Assembly: GCA_045613785.1 (NCBI GenBank)
Contig: JAZLBQ010000001.1
Span: forward strand, 2,571 to 66,570
Length of the DNA: 64,000 nucleotides
Origin: Candidatus Enterousia sp.
GTDB taxonomy: Bacteria > Pseudomonadota > Alphaproteobacteria > Rs-D84
Direction of reading: 5' to 3'
The notes under the pieces were generated by a model. It had not been told where the DNA came from and ran no database searches. It saw nothing but the letters and a program-made list of their open reading frames with translations. Of this stretch, positions 1,512 to 44,766 are shown in pieces. The position numbers and the translations under genes were made by a program. Every line of letters starts with the position of its first letter. Position 1 is the stretch's first letter.

Positions 1512-1629
1512 TGTTGTTGTTTGTTAGTATTCGGTTCGCATGTGCGAACCGATTTTTTTATGTGTTTTTTTATCTGGACAGGTAAAATAATCTTGTGCTA
1601 AGATTTATTTGTATATAGAGAGAATAGAT

Positions 1630-12003: not shown

Positions 12004-14508
12004 ATGAAAAGAAATATGACTGTTTTATGTTCTGTGTTGTGTGCCCTGGCAATGTTGCCAGGGAACAATGCGTTTGGAGCAACCATCAAAAAAACGACAA
12101 AGCAGTCGGCAATTCAAAAGGGAACTACTGTCAGAGCAAAAACTTCTGCGAATGGGTTGTATGATCAGGCGTGTTATGATGCATATTATGGATGTATGGA
12201 TCAATTTTGTATCTCTGAAAATGAATCAGGTGGCAGTTGTGCATGCAGCGATTTAAATCAGGGCTATAATGAACAGTTGTTGGATATTCAAAAAACTTTG
12301 GCCGAGGCAGAACGTGTCGCAACTGAAGAAGTAGAAAAGGTAAAACTTGGGGCAAATGCTGATATTGTATTTACAGGGACACGTAAATATGATGAAAATG
12401 GTAATTTGCTAGATGTTGATGAAATTGAAACTGAAACAGCGTCTAAGGAAAAAAAACGTGCCGATTTAATGGCGTTGTGGGATGCTAATTTAGGCGAAGA
12501 AGATGAAGATGTCTTTGCTAATGATGTGCTAGATATCGCAGATTTAACTGGTGATGCATTGTATGCAGCTGCTGAAGAGATTTGTTTGGCTCAGGTGCCT
12601 GATTCTTGTGCAAAAGATATGACTTTGTTGAAAAATATGTATTCTCGACAAATTGTTTCGGATTGCAAGGGGTTCGAAAATAGTATTGCACAGAAAAAAG
12701 CAGAGGCTGATTCTGCATTGGCACAGGCAAATGCTGATGTAAGAAGTGCATTAAAGGAATCGCTGGATGCGTCAAACAAGTATGATTTAGGGCAGTGTAT
12801 GGTTCAATTTAAGAACTGTATGAAAACAGATGATGCATGTGGTGAAAATTGGGAAAACTGTGTGTTCACTGTTGCGTCTGAAAATATGCAAAATAATATC
12901 GCAAAAAGCACCGCAGGAACAACAATCGCAACTGTGAATAAATATGATATCACAGAATCTACAATGGAAATTCTAAATTCAAAACGCACTATTTGTGAAA
13001 ATATCCTGGGGCAGTGTGTGAAGGTTCGTGATATGGTTTGGCCTGCTTTCCTGCGTGAGGCTGCACCAACAATCAAGGTGGCAGAAAGTGCGGCAGAATC
13101 TAAATTCCGTCAATCTTGTCTGACAAATATTTCTGGCTGTATTCAAAAGGCTTGTCGTGATGATATTGTCGGACGGGGCGTTGATACAATGGACGCTTGT
13201 CTGTCACGACCAGATATGGTGCGTAGTTTCTGTAAGGTTGAAATCGACCCGTGTGAACGTATGGAACCGTTGATTTGGGGGTATGTAAAAGATAAATTAG
13301 CAGCAATGCGTGTTGATGTTTGCACAAATGAAGTAAAAGAGTGTTTTACAGCAGAAACACGTTGTGGTGAAAATTTCCAGAACTGTATTGGTATGGATTA
13401 TGATTATATTCACGATATTTGTCCAATCGATAGTTTGGTTGTTTGCAAGGCTAATAATCCAGAATTTTCAATGGATGATTTGGATTCTATGTTGATGGGG
13501 CTGTATCTGAATATTGATAATTCAGCATTAGATCAATGTCAAGAACTGGTCGATCGCAAGATGGCAGAAATATGTGGTAGCACAACTGACTGTAATCGAT
13601 TTGCTAGCGATGATACAATTGGAACGGGCAGTTTGCGTTCTCAGAAAGACGGCACAGTTTATCGTGTAACTGGTATGATTTCTTTTGGTTCTATTAAGAT
13701 GGGTGATGCATCAGGACGAATGCTTGATGAGGGAAAGGATGATGCCATAAAGTTGGGGCCGGGTGAAATCGGTGTTGCTGAATATTTGCAGCAAATTCGT
13801 GATCGTAATGTAGGCGTTCAAAATGCAGATGGTATTATTTCAAGTATCGAGGAAGAATTGAATAATATCGCAGGAACAATCAATCGGACAATTGAAATGA
13901 TTGAATCTGACCCTGAAATTCAGTTCTGTGTTAGTGGGCGTGATTTGTCGCAAATTACAGGTAAAAAGGGTAAAACGACGGCTCGTTTCCCAAATCTGTT
14001 GAATCAGGTTAAAATGCAGATTGCGATTGCTGCACTGCGTCAGGCCCAGGATAATTATAATGCAAAATTTAATACCGCTGTTGCAGAGGCAACAAAAGAT
14101 GCATCTGCGGATATTGCACAATATATGTGTCATAAGATGGCGGAAGTAGGTGCAACAACGTTGAAAAGTCCAAATGTTGATTTGGCACCACCATATGCAA
14201 TCAGTTATGATGTTGGCACAGGACTTGTGACAGAAGATTTAACAACCGGTGGACATGCTGTTCAGGATCTGGCCAAGGTTAATTTCAAAAATGGTGGATA
14301 TCTGGGTGGTGCAAAAATGGATATGAATTCGGGGACCAAGGAAACCTCGGCTGTGTTTAATCGTGAGACAAGAACTTGTCATGTTTGCACAACAATAGTA
14401 ACACAAAGTTGTAAAACTACAGGCAGTTCGTCGTGGTTCCATAATAGTCGCAAGATTGACTGTAAAACAAATGATCCGATTGAAAAATGTGAAGATATTC
14501 CAATGTAA
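12004..14508 (+). CDS. Large secreted cysteine-rich protein, paralog family member C (834 aa).
   Basis: Signal peptide MKRNMTVLCSVLCALAMLPGNNAFG. Motif CYDAYYGCMDQFCISENESGGSCACS. Blocks MYSRQIVSDCKGFE and KYDLGQCMVQFKNCMKTDDACGENWENC. C-terminal TCHVCTTIVTQSC...KCEDIPM. It is followed by the terminator at 14511-14545. Confidence 0.8.
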   Translation: MKRNMTVLCSVLCALAMLPGNNAFGATIKKTTKQSAIQKGTTVRAKTSANGLYDQACYDAYYGCMDQFCISENESGGSCACSDLNQGYNEQLLDIQKTLAEAERVATEEVEKVKLGANADIVFTGTRKYDENGNLLDVDEIETETASKEKKRADLMALWDANLGEEDEDVFANDVLDIADLTGDALYAAAEEICLAQVPDSCAKDMTLLKNMYSRQIVSDCKGFENSIAQKKAEADSALAQANADVRSALKESLDASNKYDLGQCMVQFKNCMKTDDACGENWENCVFTVASENMQNNIAKSTAGTTIATVNKYDITESTMEILNSKRTICENILGQCVKVRDMVWPAFLREAAPTIKVAESAAESKFRQSCLTNISGCIQKACRDDIVGRGVDTMDACLSRPDMVRSFCKVEIDPCERMEPLIWGYVKDKLAAMRVDVCTNEVKECFTAETRCGENFQNCIGMDYDYIHDICPIDSLVVCKANNPEFSMDDLDSMLMGLYLNIDNSALDQCQELVDRKMAEICGSTTDCNRFASDDTIGTGSLRSQKDGTVYRVTGMISFGSIKMGDASGRMLDEGKDDAIKLGPGEIGVAEYLQQIRDRNVGVQNADGIISSIEEELNNIAGTINRTIEMIESDPEIQFCVSGRDLSQITGKKGKTTARFPNLLNQVKMQIAIAALRQAQDNYNAKFNTAVAEATKDASADIAQYMCHKMAEVGATTLKSPNVDLAPPYAISYDVGTGLVTEDLTTGGHAVQDLAKVNFKNGGYLGGAKMDMNSGTKETSAVFNRETRTCHVCTTIVTQSCKTTGSSSWFHNSRKIDCKTNDPIEKCEDIPM

Positions 14509-17779: not shown

Positions 17780-18859
17780 TTAGTCTATTTTGACAGGAAC
17801 TATCGTTTGCTTCTTGGCTGTGTCCAGTGAGTGATATTGGAACGGAACAGATGCAAAATTTATCTCTTTCATGTCCAGACTGCGGACTGTGCGATTATAC
17901 ATCGTATGATAGTATATAACCATATCTTTTAGGTCTGTGGCAACAGTCCACTGGGTGGCCGAAGGCATATTGTTTGGGGCAGTACCTACTGCAAACTGAA
18001 CGCCCAGGGGAACGTCAAAGTTGTTCAGGATATGAAAGGCCTGTTGAATTGTGTCGTATGCATTATCTTGCTGTAAAGAGTAGGTTTTTAAGAATGCTGC
18101 ACGGACAAAGCGTGATGGTGGTGTAAAGTCGCCTGGCAAGCCCAAGAATCCAGAACCAGAACCGAATGAACGCAGTTTAATTGGACCGAACTCGGTTGGG
18201 CCAGCACCACCAGGATGCAGGTTTACATAGTTGTTCAGGTTCGTTAGTTGCCATTGGAATCCTGGGGAATTGGTCAGGACGCCGACTTCGTTTTCGTAAA
18301 AGTTTGGAATGCCATTTACAATTTCCAAGACAACTTGGCGACCATTGGGTTCGGTTATTCGCCAATGGACCGTGCCGGCATTTGGATCAACGTTTATGAT
18401 ACGGACATCATTGATGGCTGCTTTGACTTGGTCGATTGTGGCAAAGCGTGATAATATCCAAGATACAACCTGGAAATCAGCCAAGGATATGTCTTTGTTG
18501 GCTTCGTTATATGGTTCGTAACTGCCGTAGTTTGGAAAGTAAAACAGGGCGGCAGACAGACCGGCTTCGTTTGTGCCGTCGATTATAAATTCAGGCTGTT
18601 CGGTTGCGATGCCGGCATATCCATAGAGTGATGTAAATGACAGGCCGTTCATTGTGCCGTCTGGCAGTAATGATTGGGCAGCATGCCCACGTGGAACAAT
18701 GACATACATATTGTTGTTTTCAGAACCTGACCAGTCCATTGTTCGGGCAACAACAGTTGTGTTGTCTAGTGATTTTAATGTGATGCCTGTGCAGGCGTTT
18801 GATGATTGAATCAGTGCAAGGCACATGGTTAGTGTGGATAAAAATAGTAAATGTTTCAT
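17780..18859 (-). CDS. Choloylglycine hydrolase / penicillin V acylase family Ntn-hydrolase (linear amide C-N hydrolase).
   Basis: A signal peptide is followed directly by the nucleophile Cys (SSNACTGITLKSLDNTTVVARTMDWSG), as in the CBAH family. 359 aa, typical for the family. Confidence 0.7.
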   Translation of the reverse strand: MKHLLFLSTLTMCLALIQSSNACTGITLKSLDNTTVVARTMDWSGSENNNMYVIVPRGHAAQSLLPDGTMNGLSFTSLYGYAGIATEQPEFIIDGTNEAGLSAALFYFPNYGSYEPYNEANKDISLADFQVVSWILSRFATIDQVKAAINDVRIINVDPNAGTVHWRITEPNGRQVVLEIVNGIPNFYENEVGVLTNSPGFQWQLTNLNNYVNLHPGGAGPTEFGPIKLRSFGSGSGFLGLPGDFTPPSRFVRAAFLKTYSLQQDNAYDTIQQAFHILNNFDVPLGVQFAVGTAPNNMPSATQWTVATDLKDMVIYYHTMYNRTVRSLDMKEINFASVPFQYHSLDTAKKQTIVPVKID

Positions 18860-32504: not shown

Positions 32505-33278
32505 TTATTTGTCTAAGACAGATTGCTCTAGATTTTGGACGGATTGTGTCAATTCCCGTGTGGCTAAATTGATTTTTGGTAAAATCTTGGCAACGTCATC
32601 GGATACGGCAACATGTGTGTGAGCTGCCAGATAATCTTCTAGTTCGTGATAGATTGTATTCTGGGCAGATTGAATTTGTAACCCAAGAAAACCAATTGTA
32701 AGGCTGCCCCCCAGACCAAGCAAAGAACTGGTAAATGCAGTCGCCATCCCAGCCAGTGGGCGGGTTAGTCCAGCCTGCATAGATGTTAAAACTGTTTCGT
32801 CTGAAAAGTTTAATCCACCAATCAGTTCAGCAAAACCACCAACTGTTAAAATCAAACCCCAGAATGTTCCAAGCAGACCTAAAAAAATCAAAGTGTTGGT
32901 TATATAACGGATGGATTCACGTGAATCTTCGAAACGCATCAATATCATATCCATAAAACCGTTTAATGTCGCAGCAGAAATGCGACGTGGACGAGATGCC
33001 AACATTGATGCGACAGGACGCAATAGATACGGTGGTAATGCCAAATTACGGCGACCAGTTGTGTAGCCGTGTAACCATTTATATTCGGGTAATAATTGGA
33101 ATATTTGCACAAAACAAAGACCAATTCCAAACAAGGTTGTGCCAATAATCACGCCGTTTAACCATATGTTGGCGATTGATATTTGTATGAATTCAGCCCA
33201 AAAATACATCACGCCCGCAAACAAAAATGCGGTAAACAATGTCATGCGATTTAGTGCACTGTGAAAATGTCTAGTCAT
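32505..33278 (-). CDS. MotA/TolQ/ExbB-family proton channel protein.
   Basis: Four predicted TM helices with a cytoplasmic loop between TM2 and TM3. The signature LIFLGLLGTFWGLILTVGGF is as in TolQ/ExbB/MotA TM3. It lies 29 nt upstream of the MotB-like gene. Confidence 0.75.
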   Translation of the reverse strand: MTRHFHSALNRMTLFTAFLFAGVMYFWAEFIQISIANIWLNGVIIGTTLFGIGLCFVQIFQLLPEYKWLHGYTTGRRNLALPPYLLRPVASMLASRPRRISAATLNGFMDMILMRFEDSRESIRYITNTLIFLGLLGTFWGLILTVGGFAELIGGLNFSDETVLTSMQAGLTRPLAGMATAFTSSLLGLGGSLTIGFLGLQIQSAQNTIYHELEDYLAAHTHVAVSDDVAKILPKINLATRELTQSVQNLEQSVLDK

Positions 33279-33351
33279 GTGTCTGAACCCCTCGCTTAAA
33301 CATAGAATAGTAAATTTTTGAAATCTGTGTCAATAGGGATTTGATTGAATC

Positions 33352-34344
33352 TTATATTTTATAAATTCTGATAAATGATATTTCGGATGTGCCAGTTGAA
33401 CCAGAACCACCGTCGCCACCATTTATGCCTTTTTTATAATTAGATGAAACGGATGCACCGCCACCACCACCACCGTATGTTGTTGCAGTTTGACCACCGC
33501 AGGAATATGAAACTGTTTTGCCACCACGGCCGCCGACTACTGATATCATATTTATCAAATCGTATTCTGTGTATGATGTTACATCGCCACCATTGCCCCC
33601 GGCGTCTGGAGTAGCGTCTTCGCCAGGATTTACAATTACACCTTCGACATTGTTGTTCTTGTTAAATTGCCATTTTGTGCCACCAATTCCTTCTGGTGCA
33701 CCGCCACCACCGCCGCCAATGGAATTTATATATTTGTTGCTGGTTGATGAATATGTACGAGAAAAAGAACGATAGCCGTTTATATGGCCTGCAAGATTTG
33801 TTGTGTTGCCACCAAATCCATTTCCGACTTTGACTGTGGTAGATGCTGGCACTTGATTTGTTGCAGAGCCAGAACTTGCAGAAATGCATGATTTGCCTGC
33901 ACCGCCAGGAGCACGCCATGTGTTGTTGCCTACAACTAGGATACAGTCAACGCCAGATGCACCGCCGCCAAATGAACCCTTGGACGAACCGCTGGTGATA
34001 ACTTGACCAGGGTTGCCGTCGCCACCACGTAATGCATAAACTGTGGTTGGTTCAGAAATTGAAAATAATGCTGATGTGTATGTCGTAAAGTCTGGTTCAA
34101 CATGGTCAAGGCATTCGGGGTTTGGTGCCCCAATGCCACCACTTAATTCTGCACGATAACAGCCAGGTTCTAGTAATATTTCATTACATGTGTTAAAATT
34201 TTCTGCGGTAAATACCAGTTCTTCGGTGCCTTCCATTACACATGCCCCTTGGGGTAATTCGTTAACAGTGTGATATTTTGCACCTGTTGGTGTGGAAAAG
34301 TATAGGGCAGGCGATAATAGTAAAGGTGCGATTATTGGTAGCAT
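33352..34344 (-). CDS. Secreted glycine-rich protein, paralog 2 (330 aa).
   Basis: Signal peptide MLPIIAPLLLSPALYFSTPTGA. N-terminal module C...EPGCYRAELSGGIGAP...TTVYALRGGDGNPGQ. Then GG-x-GG / GGNGGD repeats. The C-terminus SYSCGGQTATTYGGGGGGA...GGDGGSGSTGTSEISFIRIYKI is shared with the gene at 34347. Confidence 0.7.
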   Translation of the reverse strand: MLPIIAPLLLSPALYFSTPTGAKYHTVNELPQGACVMEGTEELVFTAENFNTCNEILLEPGCYRAELSGGIGAPNPECLDHVEPDFTTYTSALFSISEPTTVYALRGGDGNPGQVITSGSSKGSFGGGASGVDCILVVGNNTWRAPGGAGKSCISASSGSATNQVPASTTVKVGNGFGGNTTNLAGHINGYRSFSRTYSSTSNKYINSIGGGGGGAPEGIGGTKWQFNKNNNVEGVIVNPGEDATPDAGGNGGDVTSYTEYDLINMISVVGGRGGKTVSYSCGGQTATTYGGGGGGASVSSNYKKGINGGDGGSGSTGTSEISFIRIYKI

Positions 34345-34346
34345 GA

Positions 34347-35360
34347 CTATCCTATCTTGTGAATTCTGACAAAGCTGGTTGATGACGTGCCTGTTGAACC
34401 AGAACCGCCATCGCCGCCGACTTCACATTCATTATTACACCAAGAACCACTGTTGTTGCAAGTAGATGTTATTTTTGTTGTGCAGGTAGCACCACCACCG
34501 CCACCGCCATAGGTTGTGGCGGTTGTTCCGCCACACGAATATGAAATAGTTGCACCGCCATTGCCGCCATGAGCAAAATTTAGTGTGTTGGAATTATTTT
34601 GCAGGTTTGTAACACTGCCACCATTGCCACCATGGGTTGAGGTTGCAAGTGTGCCAGCAGTATTAGATAATTTTGTCGTTGCTTCTGCACCATTTCCAGG
34701 CAGTCCAGTGTTGCTTGGGGTCGAACCTGCACCGCCACCACCGCAGACATAATTAGATTTAACTGTTCCATTTCCGCCGTTGTTGATGTATTTGTCTGTA
34801 TAAAAACCGCCACCACCACCGCCGCATAGTGCAGAGATTCCCTGGCCACCACCAGGATGGGCAGTAATTGAACCGTTCATACAGCGTGAACCAGGAGCGC
34901 CTGTCGCACGAATTACACGGTCTCCAATTACCAAAATACTGTCAACACCAGAAGCACCGCCACCTGATACTTGGTGGCTTGAAATGGTTGGTGCGTTGTT
35001 ACCATCGCCACCACGTAGGGCATAAATCGTTGTAGGACTGTTTGTTTTAAAGAACGAGGACACATAGTTGCCTGGAAAATGTTGCTTGCCAGTTCCAGCG
35101 TTGCAGCGAGAAGGCATTCCGCCAGCACCGCCTTGTAGTTCTACACGGTAAATTCCAGCAGGCAGTTCATAGGATATGCATGTGTTTATAGGGGCAACAT
35201 CAATGATGATGTTCTCGACAGCATCCATAATCTGACCGTCAACAGGAACAAGCATGACATAATAAATTTCCCCGTTGGATTGCTTTATGTGCAGGGCAGG
35301 CGAGGTCATTTGTTGTGTGTGTGCTACTATTTCTATATTATCCAGATGTAATACTGGCAT
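34347..35360 (-). CDS. Glycine-rich protein, paralog 1 (337 aa), first gene of the 4-gene operon.
   Basis: N-terminal module ELPAGIYRVELQGGAGGMP...TTIYALRGGDGNNAP. Then GGGASGVDSILVIGDR, also present in paralog 2. C-terminus SYSCGGTTATTYGGGGGGA...GGDGGSGSTGTSSTSFVRIHKIG. Its stop is 3 nt from the start of the 33352 gene. No obvious signal peptide. Confidence 0.65.
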   Translation of the reverse strand: MPVLHLDNIEIVAHTQQMTSPALHIKQSNGEIYYVMLVPVDGQIMDAVENIIIDVAPINTCISYELPAGIYRVELQGGAGGMPSRCNAGTGKQHFPGNYVSSFFKTNSPTTIYALRGGDGNNAPTISSHQVSGGGASGVDSILVIGDRVIRATGAPGSRCMNGSITAHPGGGQGISALCGGGGGGFYTDKYINNGGNGTVKSNYVCGGGGAGSTPSNTGLPGNGAEATTKLSNTAGTLATSTHGGNGGSVTNLQNNSNTLNFAHGGNGGATISYSCGGTTATTYGGGGGGATCTTKITSTCNNSGSWCNNECEVGGDGGSGSTGTSSTSFVRIHKIG

Positions 35361-36951: not shown

Positions 36952-38013
36952 ATGTTAAAACAGTTAAAAGAATATGCAGATTATGCATCAGAAGTTATTT
37001 ATGATAATGAAAATTATGAAATGGATTTGCAGTTCTATTTAACAAATTCTTGTAATTTGAACTGTCCGGGATGTTATCTTTCTGAAACGTTGTGTAAAAC
37101 AGCTAAGTCCTGGAACGTATTGCCGTTGTCAGATCTTGGTTTTTATTTGGAAGAGTTTGAAGATATTCCGGCTTTTACTAAAAATGTTGTCTTTACTGGT
37201 GGTGAAATCTTTACTTTGCCAATCAATGGCCTTGAAAGGGCGGCACATTGTGTTTTAGATCGTGGTTGGGGGTTGCAACTTAAAACTAATGCTAAATGGG
37301 TGATAGATGATAGTTTGTGCAAATCTGTGATGAATATGTTGCGACGTTTGAATCCGGATAGGGGATTGGTTGCTACTGAACAGCAGATAAAGCGGTTTTT
37401 ACATGGTAAACCGAAATTTTTATTGCGTTTGTTGGGGCCAGAAGTGGTGCGAAAATGGATGTTCAAGGTATTGCCTACAACGTCGTTATTGAGTATGGCG
37501 GTATCGGTTGATGACAAATTGCATCCAGTTCAGTCAGCAGATTGGTTTGTGAAAATTATAAATCAAGTATCTGGGGATAAAAGTTTGCGTGAAAAGGTGG
37601 CTTTGAAGTCGTTTACTTTGTCTGATTCTATGTCATTGTTTGAGCAAAAAGTTCTGAATAATCCACAATTAAAAGTAAAGAATTTTTCAGAAATGCAAAA
37701 ACTAATGGGGGTAAAATATTCTGTCAATGGTGCTAAAATTGAATCTTATTTTGGGGATTTTGTGGATTTGACTAAGGTGTCAGCCAAAGAAAAATTATCA
37801 AATTTTGTTCAACCGCCATTGGGGGCTGCCAGGGGGCGTTTGGTGTATTCTTTTTATCCTGATAGAACAGTTGGGTTGGATTCGTATTATTTACAGTCAG
37901 TCGGCCGTGTTTCAACACTGAATACAGATGGTAGTTTGAAAAGTTTTAATAAAATACGTCGTGATATAACAACACAGTTGGTTCTGGATTATGGACGGGA
38001 AATCCAAAAATAA
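36952..38013 (+). CDS. Radical SAM domain protein of unknown function (353 aa).
   Basis: The CxxxCxxC cluster CNLNCPGCY lies at residues 34-41. The GGE SAM-binding motif VVFTGGEIFTLP is present. The roughly 220-aa remainder carries no recognisable signature. Confidence 0.6.
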   Translation: MLKQLKEYADYASEVIYDNENYEMDLQFYLTNSCNLNCPGCYLSETLCKTAKSWNVLPLSDLGFYLEEFEDIPAFTKNVVFTGGEIFTLPINGLERAAHCVLDRGWGLQLKTNAKWVIDDSLCKSVMNMLRRLNPDRGLVATEQQIKRFLHGKPKFLLRLLGPEVVRKWMFKVLPTTSLLSMAVSVDDKLHPVQSADWFVKIINQVSGDKSLREKVALKSFTLSDSMSLFEQKVLNNPQLKVKNFSEMQKLMGVKYSVNGAKIESYFGDFVDLTKVSAKEKLSNFVQPPLGAARGRLVYSFYPDRTVGLDSYYLQSVGRVSTLNTDGSLKSFNKIRRDITTQLVLDYGREIQK

Positions 38014-38084: not shown

Positions 38085-39299
38085 ATGCAAAACGAATTAT
38101 TAAAAGAATTACAGGCACGTGGATTTATAAATCAGACTTCTAATATTGATGGTCTGAATGATGCTTTGAACGCAGGTATGATTACTGCGTATTTAGGTTC
38201 TGATCCAACGGCGGACAGTTTACATGTTGGGCATTTGGTGCCGGTTATGATGATGCGTTGGTTGCAAAAATATGGTCATCGACCAATTACGTTGGTTGGT
38301 GGTGCAACAGGGCGTATTGGCGACCCATCTGGTCGTGATAGCGGCCGTCCGATGATGACTGAAGAAATCTTGGCAAAAAATGTTGCAGGATTAAAAAAGT
38401 CTTTTTCAAAGTTCTTTAAATTTGGTGATGGTCCAACTGATGCGATTATGGTTGATAACTATGATTGGATGAAAAATTACAGTCATTTGGATTTCTTGCG
38501 TGATTTTGGAACAGATTTTACTGTGCCTCGTATGTTGTCTATGGATTCGGTAAAGCGTCGTTTGGATAATGGTATGACGTTCTTGGAATTTAATTATATG
38601 ACATTTCAGGCGGTGGACTTTTTGACACTGTATCGTGAACATAATTGTATTTTGCAGACCTGTGGGGCAGACCAGTGGGGTAATGCAATTATGGGAATTG
38701 AATTGATCCGTAAAAAATTAGGCAAGGAAGCTTTTGTTCTTTCTACGTCATTGATTACAGACGCAAATGGAAACAAGATTGGAAAATCAGCAGGTAATGC
38801 TGTTTGGGTCAATGAAGATAAGACTTCGCCATACGAATATTATCAATATTTCCGCAACATTTCAGATGATTTGGTGGAAAAATTCTTGAAAATCTTTACT
38901 GAAATACCTCTTGATGAAATTGAAAAATTATCTGCGTTGCAGGGGGCTGAATTAAATCAGGCTAAAAAAGTTTTGGCATTTGCAGCAACTGAAATTGCCC
39001 ATGGGCGTGAAGCCGCAATCGTTGCCGAAGAAACCGCTGCAGCTTTGTTCGGTGGTGGGGTAAATCTGGATAATATGCCAATGGTCGAAATCGAAATGCC
39101 TGGTGATATGGGAATCTTGGATTTCTTGGTTGCAACAAAATTGTTTACTTCAAAGTCAGAAGCACGTCGCACTGTTGAGCAGGGCGGTATTCAGATAAAT
39201 TCAGAAAAAATTACTGACCCAAAGTTTGTTGTTGCGATGGCAGATGAGTTTATGGTGCAAAAGGGTAAGAAAGTATTTTTGAAAGTGATAAAAAAATAA
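38085..39299 (+). CDS. tyrS: Tyrosyl-tRNA synthetase.
   Basis: HIGH-type motif HVGHLVP. KMSKS-type KIGKS. A C-terminal S4-like domain. Confidence 0.9.
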   Translation: MQNELLKELQARGFINQTSNIDGLNDALNAGMITAYLGSDPTADSLHVGHLVPVMMMRWLQKYGHRPITLVGGATGRIGDPSGRDSGRPMMTEEILAKNVAGLKKSFSKFFKFGDGPTDAIMVDNYDWMKNYSHLDFLRDFGTDFTVPRMLSMDSVKRRLDNGMTFLEFNYMTFQAVDFLTLYREHNCILQTCGADQWGNAIMGIELIRKKLGKEAFVLSTSLITDANGNKIGKSAGNAVWVNEDKTSPYEYYQYFRNISDDLVEKFLKIFTEIPLDEIEKLSALQGAELNQAKKVLAFAATEIAHGREAAIVAEETAAALFGGGVNLDNMPMVEIEMPGDMGILDFLVATKLFTSKSEARRTVEQGGIQINSEKITDPKFVVAMADEFMVQKGKKVFLKVIKK

Positions 39300-40372
39300 T
39301 GAAGAAGTTTATCGCAATTTGTTCTTTGTTATTTGTTTGCACTGGTCCTGTGTTTGGGGTCAGTGAACTGTCAAAAATAAATGCACAAATTAAACAGACT
39401 GAACAGCAAAATAAAAAGTTAGAACAACAGGTTAAAACATCTGATAGGGAAGTTTCTAAGACAAAAAAAGATTTGGTTCGTGCCGCTGATAAGGTTAGCG
39501 ATTTGGAAGAACAACGTTCTAAGATGGCGAAGAAAATTGCAGACTTGGACAGCCAAAGGGACAGAATCACACGTGAAATGGAACAAAATCGTGGACGGAT
39601 TGCAGATGCTGCTTCTAGTATTTTGTTCGTGGCTTCGCACCCCAGTTTCGATACAGATAATATGCGTAAATATGTCTTGATGTCCGCAGTTCTGTCCGGA
39701 ACGGCACAGCAACTTGATGCAGAAATTGAACGGGCAGAAAAACAGGTCAAGGAACTGAAAAAAATTCGTGATGACCGGGCAATTGAAAAAGAAAAATTAG
39801 ATAGAACAGCCAAGAAATATGCTCGTGAAAAGTCAGAGTTGGATAAGTTGTTGAAAACACGTAGTGCTCAAAATGAAAAATTAAAAAATCAGCATTCTGC
39901 ATTGCAGAAAAAACTGCGTGAGCTGTCAGCAAAGGCTAAAAGTATTTCAGAATTGTCAGCAGGGGTCGGAAGTTCACAAATGTCTGGTGATGCACATTTT
40001 TCAAAACGTAAATTAAATTTGCCAGTCAAAGGGCGTGTGGTTGTTCGCTTTGCAGAAAAAACTGCGTTGGGATTAAAGTCTGATGGCTGGCGTGTTCGCA
40101 CACGTGGTGATGCCTTGGTTATGGCACCTGCTGATGGGGTCGTAAAATTTGCAGACAGTTTCCGTGGATTTGGCAAGGTGGTAATTATGTCGCATAAAAA
40201 TGGATATAATACAGTTATGACAAATTTAGGAAATATTGATGTTATGCTGGAACAGGAGGTCTTGGCAGGAGAACCAATAGGCAGAATGAACCCCGATAAG
40301 CCGGAAATGTATCTGGAAGTGCGACGTGGAAACAAGGCTGTTGATCCGGCTAGACTTTTTAAAGATGAATAA
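39299..40372 (+). CDS. Coiled-coil M23 family metallopeptidase (EnvC/NlpD-like murein hydrolase activator).
   Basis: Signal peptide, then a coiled coil of about 200 aa. The C-terminal LytM/M23 domain reads PVKGRVVVRFAEK...GWRVRTRGDALVMAPADGVVKFADSFRGFGKVVIMSHKNGYNTVM. Confidence 0.75.
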   Translation: MKKFIAICSLLFVCTGPVFGVSELSKINAQIKQTEQQNKKLEQQVKTSDREVSKTKKDLVRAADKVSDLEEQRSKMAKKIADLDSQRDRITREMEQNRGRIADAASSILFVASHPSFDTDNMRKYVLMSAVLSGTAQQLDAEIERAEKQVKELKKIRDDRAIEKEKLDRTAKKYAREKSELDKLLKTRSAQNEKLKNQHSALQKKLRELSAKAKSISELSAGVGSSQMSGDAHFSKRKLNLPVKGRVVVRFAEKTALGLKSDGWRVRTRGDALVMAPADGVVKFADSFRGFGKVVIMSHKNGYNTVMTNLGNIDVMLEQEVLAGEPIGRMNPDKPEMYLEVRRGNKAVDPARLFKDE

Positions 40373-40374
40373 AA

Positions 40375-40400
40375 ATAACCGCCATAATGGCGGTTATTTT
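40375..40400. terminator. Bidirectional terminator between convergent genes.
   Basis: aaaaataaccgccataatggcggttatttttatc. Confidence 0.6.
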
Positions 40401-41332
40401 TATCGTGTATTTGTAGGAAATGCTGATTCTATATAATCAATTTTCTGCATTTGTTCACGAATGAATGCAACCTTGGCAGCATTATTGTCGATGCTTTTTT
40501 GACTTGACGGATTCATGCGTAGATCATCAGATGCCTTGATTATACGACGCAGAACAGTAATCAATAGGCGGTGTTTCATGATGTTGCGTAGGTTCGGATT
40601 ACGTGGCCCTGGCATAGAATACATTGCTGGATTATGCAGGCGTGTATATGCTTCGTAAACAGGTGTCCAGATGTCCAGTTCAATCTGCAGCGGTGCAAAT
40701 ATATCACGATAGATGAAGTTATATTTCGCTTCGGCAAAGTCAATAAATGATAGCGTGCTGGTCAAAGGATCATATAAGACATTGCCAGAATTTAAATCAC
40801 CATGCGACCATGCTAGGCGTGTTTCATATTCAAATGTTCCAATTGCGTCACGGATTTTGCCCAGTTTTTGGGTTTCTTCAACCGTAAACCAGTTGTTCAT
40901 TTTGTTGTTTACAAAATTATCAAGACGTTTAAATTTTAAGTCTTGAGAAATTTTGTGTGAAACAATATCGCCAATCGGACGTGATTCGTTCATATCAACC
41001 AAAAATGATGCAATGCCATCGATGATTTCATAACGCTGGCGACGTGAAAGTTGTTTATATAAATCCGCAGTCAGGTGAAACCCAGGGGCACGTTCTTCCA
41101 GTAATTGGAATTCGTCGTCCTTGATATACAACATTTGTGGAATGTTGTAGCGTGGATTTCCAATGTCATGAATTCTATCCATAGTTTCTTTGGTTTTGTG
41201 TTGTTTTTCTAGCCAGGCTTGACGGGCTTCATCCCCAGATGTTGGCAGTGGACGCTTCATAACAAAACCAGGGCCGAAATCGGCGATATATGTTTCACGA
41301 CCATGGATAAGATTGTTTAGTTCTTCTGACAT
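40400..41332 (-). CDS. Aminoglycoside-phosphotransferase / choline-kinase-like protein kinase fold enzyme.
   Basis: Catalytic loop HGDLNSGNVLYD (HxDxxxxN). Mg-binding IDFAEA (DFG-like). 310 aa. Confidence 0.65.
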   Translation of the reverse strand: MSEELNNLIHGRETYIADFGPGFVMKRPLPTSGDEARQAWLEKQHKTKETMDRIHDIGNPRYNIPQMLYIKDDEFQLLEERAPGFHLTADLYKQLSRRQRYEIIDGIASFLVDMNESRPIGDIVSHKISQDLKFKRLDNFVNNKMNNWFTVEETQKLGKIRDAIGTFEYETRLAWSHGDLNSGNVLYDPLTSTLSFIDFAEAKYNFIYRDIFAPLQIELDIWTPVYEAYTRLHNPAMYSMPGPRNPNLRNIMKHRLLITVLRRIIKASDDLRMNPSSQKSIDNNAAKVAFIREQMQKIDYIESAFPTNTR

Positions 41333-41335
41333 TTT

Positions 41336-42061
41336 TTATATCGTTTTTGATTTTGTTAACAATTTTATTATATCTTCTTGGGTTCGCAGCATACAGGATT
41401 GCATATATGTGTAGTATGCACGTTTGTCGCCACTGGCATATTTTGCAATGGCTTCTTTGTATTTTTGTTTGTCTGCACGACGATTGAATACAATCGGACG
41501 ATAGCCACCTCTTATCAATACCCAGTTCATAATCAAGCGAGCCGTCCGTTTATTAAAATCATCAAATGGTTGCAATGCAATCAATTCATAATGAATCTTG
41601 AACGCACGGTGCAAAATGTCGTCTTTGCTGTTTTTGTAGTTGTATATAATGTTGTTGATGCTTGATTGGATATATGCTGGATCTGGTGCGTGCATGCGTT
41701 GACCATTGATTGTTATCTCAATGATTTTGTTCGTGCTGCGATAGCGTCCACCATCAATATGTGTGTTTGAAGACAGTATGCTGTGAATGTCAAGCAGGGC
41801 TTTTTCGTCAATGTCTTGGGACAGATTGTCTAAAATATAGTCATATGCCAGTCCCAGGTTTCGCATACAGTTGAAATCTAGGTATGGTTGTTGTTCCTTG
41901 TTTGGGACAAAGAACAAGGTGCGTGGTTCTGTATATGATATTTCATGACGCAGCCAGTTTACATTATTTAGACGTTTTACTGTTTCTGTGCCAGATAACA
42001 TATATGTTATAATTTCACGGTTATATTCGATTCTATTCTTTAATTTTGGTGTTCTGGTCAT
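41336..42061 (-). CDS. Fic/Doc-fold protein with a non-canonical active-site motif (QPFDDFNKRTAR).
   Basis: FKIHYELIALQPFDDFNKRTARLIMNWVLI aligns to the Fic core xHxxLxxIHPFxDGNGRxxR. The catalytic His is replaced by Gln, and there is an NKR as in the Doc subfamily. Its stop is 4 nt from the start of the kinase-like gene. Confidence 0.6.
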   Translation of the reverse strand: MTRTPKLKNRIEYNREIITYMLSGTETVKRLNNVNWLRHEISYTEPRTLFFVPNKEQQPYLDFNCMRNLGLAYDYILDNLSQDIDEKALLDIHSILSSNTHIDGGRYRSTNKIIEITINGQRMHAPDPAYIQSSINNIIYNYKNSKDDILHRAFKIHYELIALQPFDDFNKRTARLIMNWVLIRGGYRPIVFNRRADKQKYKEAIAKYASGDKRAYYTYMQSCMLRTQEDIIKLLTKSKTI

Positions 42062-42219
42062 AGGTTTCCCCCTTTGACATATTTGTTATTTTGTATAAAT
42101 ATAGGACAGAAAATATCGTTTGTCAAGGTTCTGAGTTCTTTTATTTTTAGAAAATTTCGGGTTGAATGGGGCTGTTATTTTGGCTATGCTGGTGATGGTT
42201 TTTACGAAAGGGGTTAAAT

Positions 42220-43638
42220 ATGTGGAAGAATTTATTGATTGTTTTGGCTGTGCTTTTGCCGATGGCGGTGGATGCTGCCCCAAAAAACAAGAAAAAAGAA
42301 GAGCCTGTTGTGCATTTAACAGATGAACAGATTTATCAAGAATTGAAAAAATTGGCATTGGTGTTCGAGGTGGCTCGTGAAAACTTTGTCGAAGAAGCCG
42401 ATGAAAAAAAGATGCTGGAAGCCGCAATGAACGGTATGTTGGGGGCGTTGGATCCTCATTCTTCATATCTGTCGGCAGATGATTTCAAGGATTTTAATGA
42501 TAAATCACACGGTGAATTTGGTGGGCTGGGGATTCAAATTACTAGCGATCGTGGTGCTGTGCGTGTGATTTCTCCGATTGACGATACACCAGCAGAAAAG
42601 GCCGGTATAAAAGCAGGGGATTATATTACGCATATTGATGGTGAACAAGTCTTTGATTTGACATTGAATCAGGCGGTAAAAAAGATGAAGGGGCGTCCTG
42701 GAACTAAGGTTAAATTGACGGTTGTGTCCAGTGATGGTGAATCCAAAGAAATGACGTTAAAACGTGCAATTATCAAGGTGGAATCGGTTAAATCTGATGT
42801 CAAGGTTGTCGCAGGGGCTGATATTGATGACGGCGATACACCAAAGGTTGGATATGTGCGGATTTCTGATTTTGGGGCAACAACAGCACGTGATTTGAAA
42901 AAAGCATTGGAAAAATTGGAAAAGAAAAACGTTGTTGGATATGTCGTTGATGTGCGTAATAACCCAGGTGGTTATTTGACGGCGGCAATTGATGTTTCAG
43001 ATGCGTTTCTGGACAGTGGGGAAATCGTTTCAACCCGTGGCAAGGAAAAGGCTGATATTGAACGGGTTTTTGCAAAACCAGGGGATATGGTAAATGGAAA
43101 ACCTGTTGTTGTGTTGATAAACCATGGGTCAGCATCAGCGTCTGAAATTGTTGCTGGGGCCTTGCAAGATAATGGACGTGGTTTGGTTATGGGGTCGCAA
43201 TCATTTGGTAAGGGTAGCGTGCAGCAACAAAAGCCTTTGGGTGATGGAACAGCAATTCATATAACTATTGCACGGTATTATACGCCATCTGGACGTTCAA
43301 TTCAGAATGAGGGGATAACACCGGATGTGGAAGTCTTGCAGTCTAAATTAGAAGTCTTGGAAAAGAAAGATAGTATGTATTCAGAGGCTTCGTTTAAGAA
43401 TTCTTTGAAAAATGACAAGGCAAAGAAGAAAGATAATAAAAAATCAGATAAGGACACTAAAAAGGATTCTGATGAAGAAACACCGTTCGAAGAATTGACA
43501 GACCAAGAAAAAGATGAACGTGATTACCAGTTGCAACGTGCAATGGATATGGTTATTGCTATGGGAAAAATGCAAAATCGCAGTCTTGTTAGTCCAACAG
43601 ATGTGTTGAGTGATAGTGAAGAAAAGAAGGAAAAATAA
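42220..43638 (+). CDS. ctpA: Carboxy-terminal processing protease (peptidase S41), with a lysine-rich C-terminal tail.
   Basis: PDZ domain. S41 core VVDVRNNPGGYL and INHGSASASEI. The tail is KKKDNKKSDKDTKKDSDEE. Confidence 0.85.
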   Translation: MWKNLLIVLAVLLPMAVDAAPKNKKKEEPVVHLTDEQIYQELKKLALVFEVARENFVEEADEKKMLEAAMNGMLGALDPHSSYLSADDFKDFNDKSHGEFGGLGIQITSDRGAVRVISPIDDTPAEKAGIKAGDYITHIDGEQVFDLTLNQAVKKMKGRPGTKVKLTVVSSDGESKEMTLKRAIIKVESVKSDVKVVAGADIDDGDTPKVGYVRISDFGATTARDLKKALEKLEKKNVVGYVVDVRNNPGGYLTAAIDVSDAFLDSGEIVSTRGKEKADIERVFAKPGDMVNGKPVVVLINHGSASASEIVAGALQDNGRGLVMGSQSFGKGSVQQQKPLGDGTAIHITIARYYTPSGRSIQNEGITPDVEVLQSKLEVLEKKDSMYSEASFKNSLKNDKAKKKDNKKSDKDTKKDSDEETPFEELTDQEKDERDYQLQRAMDMVIAMGKMQNRSLVSPTDVLSDSEEKKEK

Positions 43639-43668
43639 AAAAAATCCCCAGTCAGGGGATTTTTTTTA
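43637..43668. terminator. Family terminator, bidirectional (ctpA +, ccrM -).
   Basis: aaaaaaaatccccagtcaggggatttttttt. Confidence 0.75.
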
Positions 43669-44766
43669 AGCAACTTTTTTGATGTCAGATTTAATTTGAC
43701 GGATATATTTACGCAGTTCATCAATTGGAACAAGTGTGCCGTCTTGCTTTTGTGCGGACCAATAATCCCAGCCGTTAAAGCTGACACTGCGTTGCAGTTT
43801 TGCAGCCATAACATGGATTGAACCACGACCATATAATTGGTGTGTCAGTTGACCGTCGTGTGTAATCATTACACGTTCGCCACGTGGGCTGACCAGTGTT
43901 TGACCGATATACAACAGACCAGCGTCAATCAGTTCTTTGAAGGCAACACGGATTTCGTCACGCTTTGGTTTTGTAACTTCGATACCTGATAAGTCTATTG
44001 GTGTGATGTTTGAAATGCGTTTTCTGGCGGCAGCAACGTATGTTGCGTCTTGTTCAATGCCGATAAATTGACGTCCCAGTTCAAGGGCTGCAGCAGCAGT
44101 TGTGCCAGATCCCATAAATGGATCAAGGATTATATCTCCAGGCTTGGTTGATGCCAAAATTACACGGTGTAATAAATCAAGCGGTTTCTGGGTGTTGTGC
44201 AGACTTTTGCCGTCAGAACCCTTTAAACGTTCTTCGCCCAGGCAAATGTTCAAATCCCAATTTGAACGCATCTGTTTGCCACCATTTAATTTCTTCATAG
44301 TTTCGTAATTAAACGTATATTTGCCGGTCTTGGTCGGTGTGGCCCAAATCAATGTTTCGTGGGCATTCGTAAAGCGAGTGCCACGGAAATTTGGCATTGG
44401 GTTTGTTTTTACCCAGACTACATCGTTTAATATCCAGAAACCTAAGTCTTGTAAAGTTGCACCAACACGGAAAATATTGTGATAACTGCCAATCGTCCAC
44501 ATTGCACCATTTGGTTTCAGGACACGTTTGCATTCGGCCAGCCATGCACGGGTAAATGCGTCGTATTCGGCAGATGATTCAAATGAATCCCATTCATCAC
44601 GAACAGCACGGGCGGCTGTTTGATCTTCGGGTCTGTAAAGTGTTTTTGAACCTAGTTGCAAATTATATGGAGGATCTGCAAATACTGCATCAACTGATGC
44701 GTCAGGTATGCCACGCATTAGGTCCAGACAATCTCCCAGCAAAATTTGATTCAGGTATTTGTTCAT
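43666..44766 (-). CDS. ccrM: Cell-cycle-regulated N6-adenine DNA methyltransferase, CcrM-type (GANTC specific by homology).
   Basis: Near-collinear with Caulobacter CcrM: FADPPYNLQLG (DPPY), SYHNIFRVG, FWILNDVVW, PMPNFRGTRFTNAHETLIWA, and FxGxG in ILDPFMGSGTTAAAA. Confidence 0.9.
   Translation of the reverse strand: MNKYLNQILLGDCLDLMRGIPDASVDAVFADPPYNLQLGSKTLYRPEDQTAARAVRDEWDSFESSAEYDAFTRAWLAECKRVLKPNGAMWTIGSYHNIFRVGATLQDLGFWILNDVVWVKTNPMPNFRGTRFTNAHETLIWATPTKTGKYTFNYETMKKLNGGKQMRSNWDLNICLGEERLKGSDGKSLHNTQKPLDLLHRVILASTKPGDIILDPFMGSGTTAAAALELGRQFIGIEQDATYVAAARKRISNITPIDLSGIEVTKPKRDEIRVAFKELIDAGLLYIGQTLVSPRGERVMITHDGQLTHQLYGRGSIHVMAAKLQRSVSFNGWDYWSAQKQDGTLVPIDELRKYIRQIKSDIKKVA

Follow-up and report, generated by a model that had tools for sequence, protein, structure and literature searches.

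The 241-aa protein described here belongs to a family of Fic-fold proteins (below, the Q-type family) in which glutamine occupies the position of the catalytic histidine, and conservation among its relatives indicates that this residue, Gln164, is a selected feature of the whole family and not an error. The scaffold is of the class II, FICD-like type, and the protein is Doc-like only in its motif. Together with a kinase gene, the Fic gene forms a two-gene operon on the chromosome, whose place in the genome is stable in Rs-D84 (Candidatus Enterousia), an order of gut alphaproteobacteria with reduced genomes. It is known that a catalytic histidine defines the Fic enzymes. A family that is large, is under purifying selection, has Gln in place of this His and keeps its phosphate-binding site frozen points either to undescribed Fic chemistry (a base-free acceptor, hydrolysis and inverted ligand use being the candidates) or to a conserved ligand-sensing pseudo-Fic; judging from the sequences, the Fic fold in this family probably does carry out previously undescribed chemistry. 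Our main reading, held tentatively and with a probability of roughly 0.3, is that the Fic-like protein is a working cytoplasmic phosphate- or nucleotide-handling protein, whose acceptor would need no general base and which would cooperate with the kinase.

Both genes had been predicted earlier from the DNA letters (hereafter, the original prediction), and both lie on the minus strand of the window, that is, the whole 64,000-nt stretch of DNA that was analysed, exactly as predicted (Table 1). The spacer between them, predicted to be 4 nt, proved to be 3 nt when read from the sequence: the stop codon TAA (41338-41336) is followed by AAA and then by ATG (41332-41330). The operonic arrangement of the Fic gene with a kinase retaining its catalytic residues holds as predicted. 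The candidate promoter is the best sigma-70-like site in the 158-bp divergent intergenic region between ctpA and the Fic gene, and is situated about 37 nt 5' of the ATG.

Table 1. Features of the Fic-kinase locus and of its conserved neighbours (positions in the window)
Feature	Position	Strand	Basis or remark
Fic-fold protein, 241 aa, Q-type subfamily	41336..42061	-	ORF call; Pfam Fic; AF2 model; structural matches
APH/choline-kinase-like kinase, 310 aa	40400..41332	-	3 nt 3' of the Fic stop codon
Candidate sigma-70-like promoter, TTGACA + 17 nt spacer + TATATT (11/12 positions match)	42098..42126	-	consensus match only
AAGGGGG, Shine-Dalgarno-like, 6 nt ahead of the start codon of the Fic gene	42068..42074	-	sequence reading
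Bidirectional 16-bp hairpin terminator, common to the convergent M23 and kinase genes	40369..40403	.	predicted from sequence
EnvC-like coiled-coil + M23 peptidase, conserved right-hand neighbour	39299..40372	+	Pfam M23 61.3 bits; synteny
CtpA, a C-terminal processing protease (S41) that includes a PDZ domain; gene divergent to that of Fic	42220..43638	+	Pfam S41 203.2 bits
Remodelled active-site loop Q164-P-F-D-D168-F169-N170-K171-R172-T-A-R175	41537..41572	-	four alignments and census of 257
Glu45, probable class II inhibitory-Glu equivalent, helix 27-49, ...NWLRHEISYT-EPRTLF	41927..41929	-	MAFFT column
Kinase catalytic loop H177-G-D179-L-N-S-G-N184 (Brenner motif HxDxxxxN)	40781..40804	-	H177, D179, N184 invariant, 31 homologues
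Kinase I197-D198-F-A-E201, metal-binding DFG equivalent	40730..40744	-	D198 invariant
Kinase Lys26 in FVMKRPLP, beta-3 ATP-binding lysine	41255..41257	-	invariant; strand 23-28 of the model

A profile alignment, to confirm the residue correspondence, and a structure prediction had been proposed as checks, and both point to Fic. The 241-aa protein matches the Pfam Fic family (PF02661) with 57.8 bits (E = 2.1e-15; cut-off 24) over profile positions 2-93 of 93, and its AF2 model (pLDDT 91.4, pTM 0.89) has the Fic fold. The model is all-helical, with the active-site loop 164-169 flanked by helices 149-163 and 170-184; it also predicts the flap hairpin that docks targets (E113-118 and E121-124). 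The best Foldseek matches of the model were FICD/HYPE structures (TM 0.77-0.79, E about 1e-10), FICD being the best match by sequence as well, and hhalign aligned the family to 15 canonical class II relatives with a probability of 99.9% over residues 58-238. By these comparisons, the family is closest to FICD and to canonical class II Fic proteins, and not to Doc. With FICD/HYPE and the bacterial class II proteins (SoFic, C. difficile Fic, BT_2513) the Q-type proteins share the overall fold and helix order, the PF, D, N and R..R motif positions, the flap, and an N-terminal helix with a conserved Glu. They differ in the replacement of His by Gln and of both motif glycines (by Phe/Tyr and by Lys), and carry neither a TPR nor a wHTH domain. 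The HAP motif of the flap is kept (P126 in 238 of the 257 relatives), and most members of the family have a conserved flap (HAPD); the hairpin is absent from some distant ones (P0130, P0132, P0149, P0202).

Compared to the canonical HPFxDGNGRxxR, the motif QPFDDFNKRTAR of the Fic protein has Gln for His, Phe for the first Gly and Lys for the second Gly, with F, D, N, R and R retained; the core motif HxFx(D/E)GNGRxxR with the catalytic His is not found in the protein. The segment quoted in the original prediction, IHYELIALQPFDDFNKRTAR, corresponds to residues 156-175. As predicted, Gln stands in place of the catalytic His, and the position typical of Doc holds Lys. Gln164 falls on the His in all four alignments: phmmer with human FICD (where 'ialqPFdDfNkRTaRL' is aligned to 'YIHPFIDGNGRTSRL'), the family profile with FICD, hhalign with the 15 canonical class II relatives, and hhalign with P1 Doc, in which Q164 corresponds to H66 and K171 to K73. 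Two observations had been named in advance as speaking against the substitution. One was a His aligned elsewhere at the catalytic position, which none of the alignments yielded; the other was orthologs with the canonical HPFx(D/N)GNGR, whereas the relatives have Q..NKR (250 of 257) or H..NKR (7 of 257). H93 and H157 were considered as a relocated catalytic His and rejected: both are equally conserved in the canonical HPFxDGNGR relatives, and therefore are residues of the fold.

The census comprised 257 non-identical relatives of the 241-aa protein. The catalytic position holds Q (n = 250) or H (n = 7) and no other residue; thus a hydrogen-bonding side chain of that size seems to be needed, and the position is not free. 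N170, K171, R172 and R175 are found in all 257 sequences, Glu45 in 256, and D168 in 255, while position 169 varies (F, n = 209; Y, n = 33; C, n = 7; A, n = 3). The mean column identity of the family is 28%, with the active-site residues frozen. For close pairs, dN/dS of Fic lay at 0.03-0.12; CtpA had values of 0.02-0.06, and the kinase of about 0.03-0.15, in most cases 0.04-0.08. The median pairwise identity is 53% for Fic vs 80% for CtpA; diversifying selection, suspected from low Fic identity at about 80% CtpA identity, was rejected for close pairs on the strength of these values. Were the glutamine a sequencing error, or the gene a decaying pseudogene, a single base would suffice, as Gln (CAx) and His (CAy) codons are one base apart; however, 250 of the 257 sequences, which are independent and come from many assemblies, have Gln, the ORFs are intact, and selection is purifying, so that we consider the probability of this explanation negligible.

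Glu45 is probably the equivalent of the intramolecular inhibitory Glu of class II proteins: in the MAFFT alignment it occupies the same invariant column as E of SNAIEGN in the canonical class II sequences, while the hhalign alignment spans residues 58-238 only. The inhibitory motif [ST]xxxE[GN] is shortened to T-E-P in the Q-type proteins, the [ST]xxx part being deleted and Glu being followed by Pro. In the profile alignment, Asn407 of FICD, which we take to be the adenine-contacting residue, is aligned to the conserved Ala209, a hint that the ligand, or the pose in which it binds, differs here.

Doc, the toxin of the phage P1 Phd-Doc system, is a Fic-fold kinase of EF-Tu. The Q-type Fic has in common with it the Lys at the second-Gly position and the D-x-N-K-R-T-A string; in Doc, this Lys is reported to accompany an inverted ATP orientation and phosphoryl instead of AMP transfer (Castro-Roa et al. 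2013, as cited in PMC4454073). Unlike Doc (about 125 aa), the Q-type protein is twice as long, has Gln164 in place of the essential His66 and Phe at position 6 of the Doc motif HxFx(D/N)(A/G)NKR, retains the last motif Arg (R175; Leu77 in Doc), and has neither an adjoining Phd-type antitoxin gene nor a mobile-element location. True homology to Doc was rejected, as hhalign gave a probability of 18% over 30 columns and the TIGR01550 score was 25.7 bits vs the cut-off of 38.65. Thus the predicted 'Doc/Fic' assignment stands for the motif and fails for the scaffold; in contrast to Doc, the protein keeps R175 and, probably, the intramolecular inhibitory Glu (E45).

A Doc-like clade, D2, with the motif Qx[F|Y]x[D|E][G|V]NKR was described from 45 short single-domain sequences and was argued from conservation to be probably not dead, no function being assigned (Khater and Mohanty 2015, Sci Rep 5:10804, PMC4454073). 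The combination of His-to-Gln with Lys (NKR) is also found in the Q-type Fic; by the description of D2, the latter is set apart by position 6 (Gly or Val in D2; Phe, Tyr or Cys in the Q-type Fic), by the FICD-like scaffold, by the N-terminal Glu helix, and by the final Arg. Our literature search found no later study following up this group, and the sole earlier notice of His-to-Gln Fic/Doc proteins is the computational one of 2015. The Q-type family could be a cleaner entry point, as it offers hundreds of natural variants, natural Gln-to-His revertants, and a linked kinase through which the substrate may come to light. It was seen only in genomes of the Rs-D84/Candidatus Enterousia type, most of them sequenced after 2015.

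Judging from its sequence, the 310-aa kinase looks catalytically intact and of the APH/choline-kinase, that is, small-molecule type. It matches Pfam APH (PF01636) with 36.5 bits (cut-off 23.2), which, like the Fic match of the 241-aa protein, is far above chance level; the match to Choline_kinase (PF01633), 25.4 bits over residues 156-211 only, is below the cut-off of 29. The best structural matches of its AF2 model (pLDDT 89.8) are APH(2'') enzymes (E = 2e-9, TM 0.5-0.57), which are its best neighbours by sequence as well; identity to any solved structure is about 14-16%. In common with APH(2'') and choline/ethanolamine kinases it has a bilobal kinase-like fold, the HxDxxxxN loop, the metal-binding Asp, the beta-3 Lys, and a helical C-terminal substrate lobe. 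The predicted motifs HGDLNSGN (177-184) and IDFAE (197-201) are present, K26, H177, D179, N184 and D198 are invariant among 31 homologues, and the string YNFIYRDI....E after IDFAE resembles a choline-kinase motif. The protein reaches the curated cut-off of none of the specific families (Choline_kinase, TCAD9, OspG, all NCBIfam models), and its identification as AmgK, LicA or ThiK was rejected, neither NCBIfam nor Pfam supporting it.

The same gene pair was searched for in other genomes, as the original prediction had suggested. The kinase gene is adjacent to the Fic gene in 64 of 80 species genomes (Fic then kinase, n = 49; kinase then Fic, n = 3; convergent, n = 12), and the remaining 16 Fic-seeded loci have no adjacent kinase; in at least 9 of the 46 kinase-seeded loci there is no adjacent Fic gene. 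As Fic-only and kinase-only loci both occur, obligate pairing was rejected as a strict rule. For 80 same-strand Fic/kinase loci the spacer ranged from -4 to +18 nt, a 1-nt overlap being the commonest. The Fic gene lies between the EnvC-like M23 peptidase gene and ctpA in almost all of the 80 GTDB loci examined, and ctpA also adjoins Fic relatives as distant as 33-36% identity. The hit lists contained no Fic-kinase fusion proteins, and a literature search for pairs of Fic and APH genes yielded nothing relevant. Rs-D84 genomes are below 1 Mb and lack biosynthesis of amino acids, nucleotides and lipids, and for the Rs-D84/Enterousia host a dependence on some partner organism has been suggested (PMC12306168). 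In such genomes the retained genes are likely to matter, and salvage is plausible; the Fic-kinase pair, being among the approximately 900 genes retained by these uncultured gut bacteria, may bear on metabolite salvage or envelope building.

In the course of events that we infer for the main reading, the Fic-like protein would still bind an Mg-nucleotide or a phosphorylated ligand in its anion nest, and Lys171 would impose the Doc-like, inverted orientation of this ligand. Gln164 would position the acceptor by a hydrogen bond only and would not deprotonate it, an arrangement suited to an acceptor with a negative charge from the outset (a phosphomonoester, for instance) or, alternatively, to water. 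The kinase would phosphorylate a salvaged small molecule; the phosphate thus attached would receive a further phosphoryl or nucleotidyl group from the Fic-like protein, or the phosphorylated product would be processed by it in another way. This two-step activation might feed the cell-envelope functions encoded nearby and would formally be similar to LicA-LicC and AmgK-MurU. The latter are two-step salvage pairs of a kinase and a nucleotidyltransferase, in which an APH-family kinase gene lies beside the gene of the enzyme that uses its phosphorylated product, and the surroundings are envelope-related. This analogy would be functional only, since the second enzyme in these pairs is a Rossmann-like nucleotidyltransferase with no Fic fold and no sequence similarity.

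The most specific version, a Fic fold re-tooled for a small molecule, with Gln164 and Lys171 positioning a kinase-made phosphomonoester for the second phosphoryl or nucleotidyl group, we consider unlikely as it stands. The main reading as a whole agrees with the selection of Gln, for which only His is tolerated instead, and with the frozen rest of the site, with the purifying selection, with the plausibility of salvage in the host order, with the tight linkage to a seemingly active kinase of the small-molecule type, with Ala209 opposite Asn407 of FICD, and with the absence of the protein-docking flap hairpin from some distant members. On the other hand, we know of no Fic-fold enzyme acting on a small-molecule acceptor, every characterised activity being protein-directed. 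If the pathway were strictly sequential, the genes should co-occur, and the frequency of loci with only one of them (16 of 80 and at least 9 of 46) argues against this. Further, the retained Glu45 would compete with the gamma-phosphate, as in autoinhibited class II Fic proteins, the flap conserved in most members suits a protein target, and the kinase does not match the AmgK, LicA or ThiK models. If true, a small-molecule Fic would be the first Fic-fold enzyme with a non-protein substrate and part of an unrecorded two-enzyme salvage or activation pathway in reduced-genome gut symbionts.

Alternatively, both proteins could be directed at a protein target: the Q-type Fic would erase phosphate or AMP, using Glu45 in the manner of FICD Glu234, or would read a modified residue, while the kinase would serve as writer or as another regulator acting on that target, perhaps in envelope or division control. 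The Fic enzymes characterised so far all have protein targets, the closest structures belong to FICD, a bifunctional AMPylase/deAMPylase, the flap hairpin and its HAP motif are kept, and Glu45 is near-invariant; deAMPylation by FICD is reported to require the equivalent Glu (PMC8373988, PMC6408439). Loci with only one of the two genes are also easier to explain for two regulators than for two steps of a pathway. Nevertheless, we hold this reading to be possible but somewhat doubtful. Transfer to, or hydrolysis from, Ser, Thr or Tyr requires His as a base or acid in Fic, Doc and FICD, and Gln can serve as neither; the kinase resembles small-molecule rather than protein kinases; and the gene context offers no candidate target, because both conserved neighbours are periplasmic. 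If, instead, catalysis had been lost and nucleotide or phosphate binding kept, the Fic-like protein would be a sensor, scaffold or allosteric partner of the kinase or of another protein. Catalytically dead Fic and Doc mutants are as a standard made by changing the His of this position to Ala or Tyr, pseudoenzymes often retain ligand-binding residues, which would match the invariant D, N, K, R, R set, and the Fic gene is tightly coupled to the kinase gene. However, the position is restricted to Q, rarely H, over 257 sequences and not relaxed, the three coordinated changes in the loop look like re-specialisation of the site rather than loss, and 16 of 80 loci retain Fic where no kinase gene adjoins it; loss of catalysis is thus an explanation that we can entertain, on the unlikely side.

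The original prediction suggested an effector or toxin module and listed an antitoxin-like partner among the possible readings. In a module of the toxin-antitoxin, defence or secreted-effector kind, toxicity or injection would fall to one partner, and neutralisation or assistance to the other. Toxins and effectors are numerous among the bacterial Fic and Doc proteins, and the Fic protein shows weak similarity to the PADLOC models PDC-S04 and SoFic (43-69 bits); these matches are generic, and the kinase has no match in PADLOC or PHROG, so a defence system was rejected. The partner dependence suggested for the host (PMC12306168), the autotransporter-like proteins and giant proteins without a family match also encoded in the window, the divergence of Fic, faster than that of its neighbours, and the sometimes discordant identities of Fic and kinase could all be read in the same direction. 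Still, we find both suggestions very improbable. There is no small antitoxin ORF in the operon (its 5' neighbour is the divergent ctpA and its 3' gene is the 310-aa kinase), the Glu-bearing inhibitory helix appears to be intramolecular, and each gene is found without the other. The chromosomal position between the M23 gene and ctpA is fixed in nearly all loci, the Fic gene is under purifying selection, and neither protein has a signal peptide or secretion domain evident by eye. Origin from a phage, plasmid or virus was also rejected: tblastn against 50,697 phage records gave only one generic Fic at 33%, tblastn against plasmids gave only generic Fic proteins at 34% or less, and the scanned IMG/VR viral contigs contained no relatives.

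In a rough NJ tree, the H forms are nested within the Q clade, and one of them (L065) occupies the same locus as the Q forms. The apparent order of the changes in the loop, as read from the rough tree, is from Q..GNGR to Q..ANKR and then to Q..[FY]NKR. The Fic and kinase identities are 47% and 80%, respectively, in one discordant locus (L085), and 86% and 67% in another (L008), suggesting occasional replacement by recombination. In one locus, the position of the Fic gene is occupied by an unrelated ORF of 355 aa.

The 241-aa protein is assigned to Fic by Pfam (57.8 bits against a cut-off of 24, with the whole profile spanned), and in four of four independent alignments Gln164 falls on the position of the catalytic His: phmmer against human FICD, where QPFDDFNKRTAR is matched to HPFIDGNGRTSR; the family profile against FICD; hhalign against 15 canonical class II relatives (99.9% probability); and hhalign against P1 Doc, whose sequence was confirmed against PDB 3K33. 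Relative to the canonical motif, His is replaced by Gln, the first Gly by Phe and the second Gly by Lys, with Asp168, Asn170, Arg172 and Arg175 retained. Thus, the original prediction of a Gln at the catalytic position and a Doc-type Lys is borne out by all four alignments, and the profile alignment reveals no relocated His. H93 and H157 were considered as substitutes and rejected, since both are just as conserved in the canonical relatives.

The AlphaFold2 model (41 homologues as input; pLDDT 91.4, pTM 0.89) has FICD/HYPE and bacterial class II Fic proteins as its top PDB matches, with TM up to 0.79. In contrast, Doc is absent among the sequence matches, hhalign with Doc extends over only the 30 residues that surround the motif (18% probability), and TIGR01550 scores under its cut-off. 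Thus, the scaffold is FICD-like, and the protein is Doc-like in the Lys only; it also keeps the last motif Arg (Arg175), which Doc does not. In a MAFFT alignment the invariant Glu45 shares a column with the Glu of the inhibitory motif SNAIEGN of canonical relatives, the preceding [ST]xxx being deleted, and on this basis Glu45 is likely the counterpart of that Glu, in a region outside the hhalign local alignment. The C-terminal tail (...LTKSKTI, window 41336-41350) is conserved, with the consensus KSK[I/T][L/I] and Ser238 invariant across the 41-sequence alignment; the gene adjoins that of a C-terminal processing protease, and the protein has no evident signal peptide.

A search of 5.8 billion proteins yielded 2,128 matches, and among the best 120 of these (47-100% identity to the query) every recognisable motif is [Q/H]..NKR. 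In an exhaustive representative search (21 clusters below 1e-30, 114 below 1e-10), Q..NKR persists to about 33% identity, and farther matches are ordinary HPFxDGNGR. When relatives were checked for the canonical HPFx(D/N)GNGR, position 164 was instead Gln in 250 and His in 7 of 257 non-identical members, with no other residue; thus, Gln is a family character. Glu45 is kept in 256 and Asp168 in 255 of the 257, and Asn170, Lys171, Arg172, Arg175, Tyr201 and Tyr216 in all (for Lys171 partly by construction in the database-derived subset). In a rough neighbour-joining tree the H..NKR forms are nested in the Q clade, and the tree also suggests the order Q..GNGR, Q..ANKR, Q..[F/Y]NKR; one H-form (L065) is encoded at the chromosomal position where its Q relatives lie. 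A distant Q-type member (33% identity; L089 6001-6786, also L090 and L091) carries the exact Doc-like string QPFSDANKRT; its L089 gene has gyrA/PPIase on one side and recJ on the other, in a genome of 36% GC, with neither ctpA nor a kinase gene beside it.

D2, a Doc subclade of 45 sequences described in silico under the motif Qx[F|Y]x[D|E][G|V]NKR, has Gln for His and was argued to be probably not dead, without any assigned function (Khater and Mohanty 2015, PMC4454073). The Q and K are common to D2 and the present family, which differs from D2 as described at position 6, in scaffold, in the kept last Arg, in the Glu helix and in taxon. We found no later literature on D2 and none on Fic proteins paired with APH-like kinases.

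Both predicted minus-strand ORFs, with the motifs quoted for them, were found in place and form a putative two-gene operon; their close adjacency stands, and the spacer is 3 nt, not 4 nt as first given.

Layout of the predicted operon
Feature	Position	Strand	Basis or remark
Fic-like gene, 241 aa	41336..42061	-	ORF; position as originally predicted
Kinase gene, 310 aa	40400..41332	-	ORF; position as originally predicted
Intergenic spacer, 3 nt	TAA 41338-41336, AAA, ATG 41332-41330	-	sequence
Strong sigma-70-like promoter, TTGACA-17 nt-TATATT	42126-42098		5' of Fic-like gene; predicted from sequence
Ribosome-binding site, AAGGGGG		-	5' of Fic-like gene; predicted from sequence
Bidirectional hairpin, 16 bp	40369-40403		3' of kinase gene

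Pfam assigns the 310-aa protein to APH (36.5 bits against a cut-off of 23.2), with Choline_kinase, TCAD9 and OspG scoring under their Pfam thresholds, and no specific Pfam or NCBIfam family claims it. Its model (pLDDT 89.8) comes structurally closest to the APH(2'') aminoglycoside kinases, with which it shares 12-16% identity, and the stretch IDFAE...YRDI...E resembles the choline kinase motif. The catalytic motifs described earlier are intact: 31 homologues all keep the beta-3 Lys26, H177-x-D179-x4-N184 and Asp198, and the protein looks like an active kinase of small-molecule type.

The pairing holds in 64 of 80 species loci, in three gene orders: Fic then kinase on one strand (n = 49), kinase then Fic (n = 3) and convergent (n = 12), leaving 16 with no adjacent kinase. 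The spacer in 80 same-strand loci ranges from -4 to +18 nt, a one-base overlap being commonest. In a reciprocal metagenome scan seeded with the kinase, Fic adjoins in 27 of 46 loci, and in at least nine loci with adequate flanks (L120, L130, L133 and L134 among them) the kinase stands alone between the M23 peptidase gene and ctpA, on one strand. As Fic-only and kinase-only loci occur beside frequent adjacency, the linkage is strong but not obligatory; the constant element is the M23/ctpA site. In the metagenome contig L095 an unrelated 355-aa ORF without a Pfam family (813-1880, plus strand) holds the Fic position between ctpA and the kinase gene, which lies 3' of it and encodes a protein 82% identical to the window kinase; this ORF may be an alternative partner. 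The CAJGDN01 MAG holds two pairs (L009, Fic 85% and kinase 68%; L073, on a 2.2-kb contig, 47% and 65%), which points to a bin of mixed strains or else to a genuine second copy. Of the kinase relatives, the most divergent (L140, 37% identity, 186-kb contig) lies directly 3' of a GAPDH gene, with a second APH-family gene 3 kb away (3917-4894 and 7703-8599) and no Fic gene in the 4-kb flanks on both sides.

A scan that took one genome for each GTDB species found relatives of the Fic-like protein in 153 genomes. The 80 genomes retrieved are without exception MAGs of gut alphaproteobacteria, under the labels Candidatus Enterousia, uncultured Alphaproteobacteria or Rickettsiales, and include a circular chromosome of 958,618 bp. 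The host order is Rs-D84, with genomes below 1 Mb, most biosynthesis missing and a life thought to be in obligate dependence on a partner (PMC12306168). In nearly all loci examined ctpA adjoins the Fic gene, usually with the EnvC-like M23 peptidase gene and tyrS alongside, and this neighbourhood is kept around relatives of only 33-36% identity and survives orientation change (L092: M23, Fic, ctpA on one strand). Between the pair and the M23 gene there is a hot spot for insertions (L002 7723-11116, L003 7747-10695, L071 5718-10598, L042 5958-8886) of large PKD-containing or familyless genes of up to 1626 aa; the right flank can also be wholly rearranged (RNase E/G and LPG_synthase_TM in L001 and L014).

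Fic is the quickest to diverge: its median pairwise identity is 53%, and the medians for the kinase, M23 and CtpA are 62%, 71% and 80%. Diversifying selection was rejected: between close genomes its dN/dS is 0.03-0.12, comparable with the kinase (about 0.03-0.15, mostly 0.04-0.08) and CtpA (0.02-0.06), hence selection is purifying. Divergence within the pair can be discordant (window vs L008, dN 0.08 for Fic and 0.27 for the kinase; window vs L085, identity 47% and 80%), which suggests occasional replacement of one gene.

If the pair were a toxin, effector or defence module, as the original prediction leaned, a small antitoxin gene might accompany it; none was found, and the inhibitory helix appears intramolecular. 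Phage and plasmid records give generic Fic only, and IMG/VR none; PADLOC and PHROG matches are likewise generic Fic, with none for the kinase. Together with the stable synteny and purifying selection, this makes such a module very improbable; of the original interpretation, the motif reading stands and the toxin/effector leaning does not.

Comparative analysis shows that the phosphate-binding site of this FICD-like fold has been remodelled, is under selection and appears functional, and that the gene shares a predicted operon with that of an intact kinase, at a site among envelope genes that stays fixed in a reduced genome. We infer that Gln cannot be a general base or acid, that position 164 tolerates Gln or His only and that an extra Lys has been added to the active site; thus, the acceptor probably needs positioning, not deprotonation, as would suit water or a phosphomonoester in anionic form. 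The most economical reading, at a probability of roughly 0.3, is two-step activation: the small-molecule-type kinase would phosphorylate first, and the Fic-like protein would then move a phosphoryl or nucleotidyl group onto that phosphate. That the Fic itself is genuinely directed at small molecules we consider unlikely. Against two-step activation stand the Fic-only and kinase-only loci, as well as the conservation of the flap and of Glu45, features that would go with a protein substrate or with hydrolysis; we also know of no precedent for it. A protein-directed eraser or reader and a ligand-binding pseudoenzyme are serious rivals, each tentative in its own right. The family is a natural, well-sampled system for probing what a His-less Fic site does.

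Elsewhere in the window, a 353-aa ORF between rplI and tyrS (36952-38013, plus strand) shows only a weak resemblance to radical SAM (PF04055, 24.8 bits, under cut-off) and a faint viperin-like NCBIfam match (E 9e-4); as counterparts were detected in two related loci only (L010, 60%; L066, 51% identity), the ORF is an insertion that varies between genomes while the stretch around it is conserved. Five very large ORFs of 717-1235 aa (1630-5337, 6627-9344, 9828-11981, 12004-14508, 19784-23128), with no Pfam family at E<=1e-5, and three ORFan genes (32505-35360) make up a large share of the window. A 1307-aa autotransporter (24591-28514, plus strand; beta-domain 102 bits) with Chlamydia polymorphic-membrane-protein repeats is surface adhesin-like, in a bacterium thought to be partner-dependent. 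A bile-salt-hydrolase-like choloylglycine hydrolase family protein (17780-18859, minus strand; PF02275, 219.5 bits) is kept despite the ~0.9 Mb genome. Directly after ctpA lies a CcrM-like N6/N4 DNA methyltransferase gene (43666-44766, minus strand) with a C-terminal RAMA domain, followed by nrdR, which fits an alphaproteobacterial origin.
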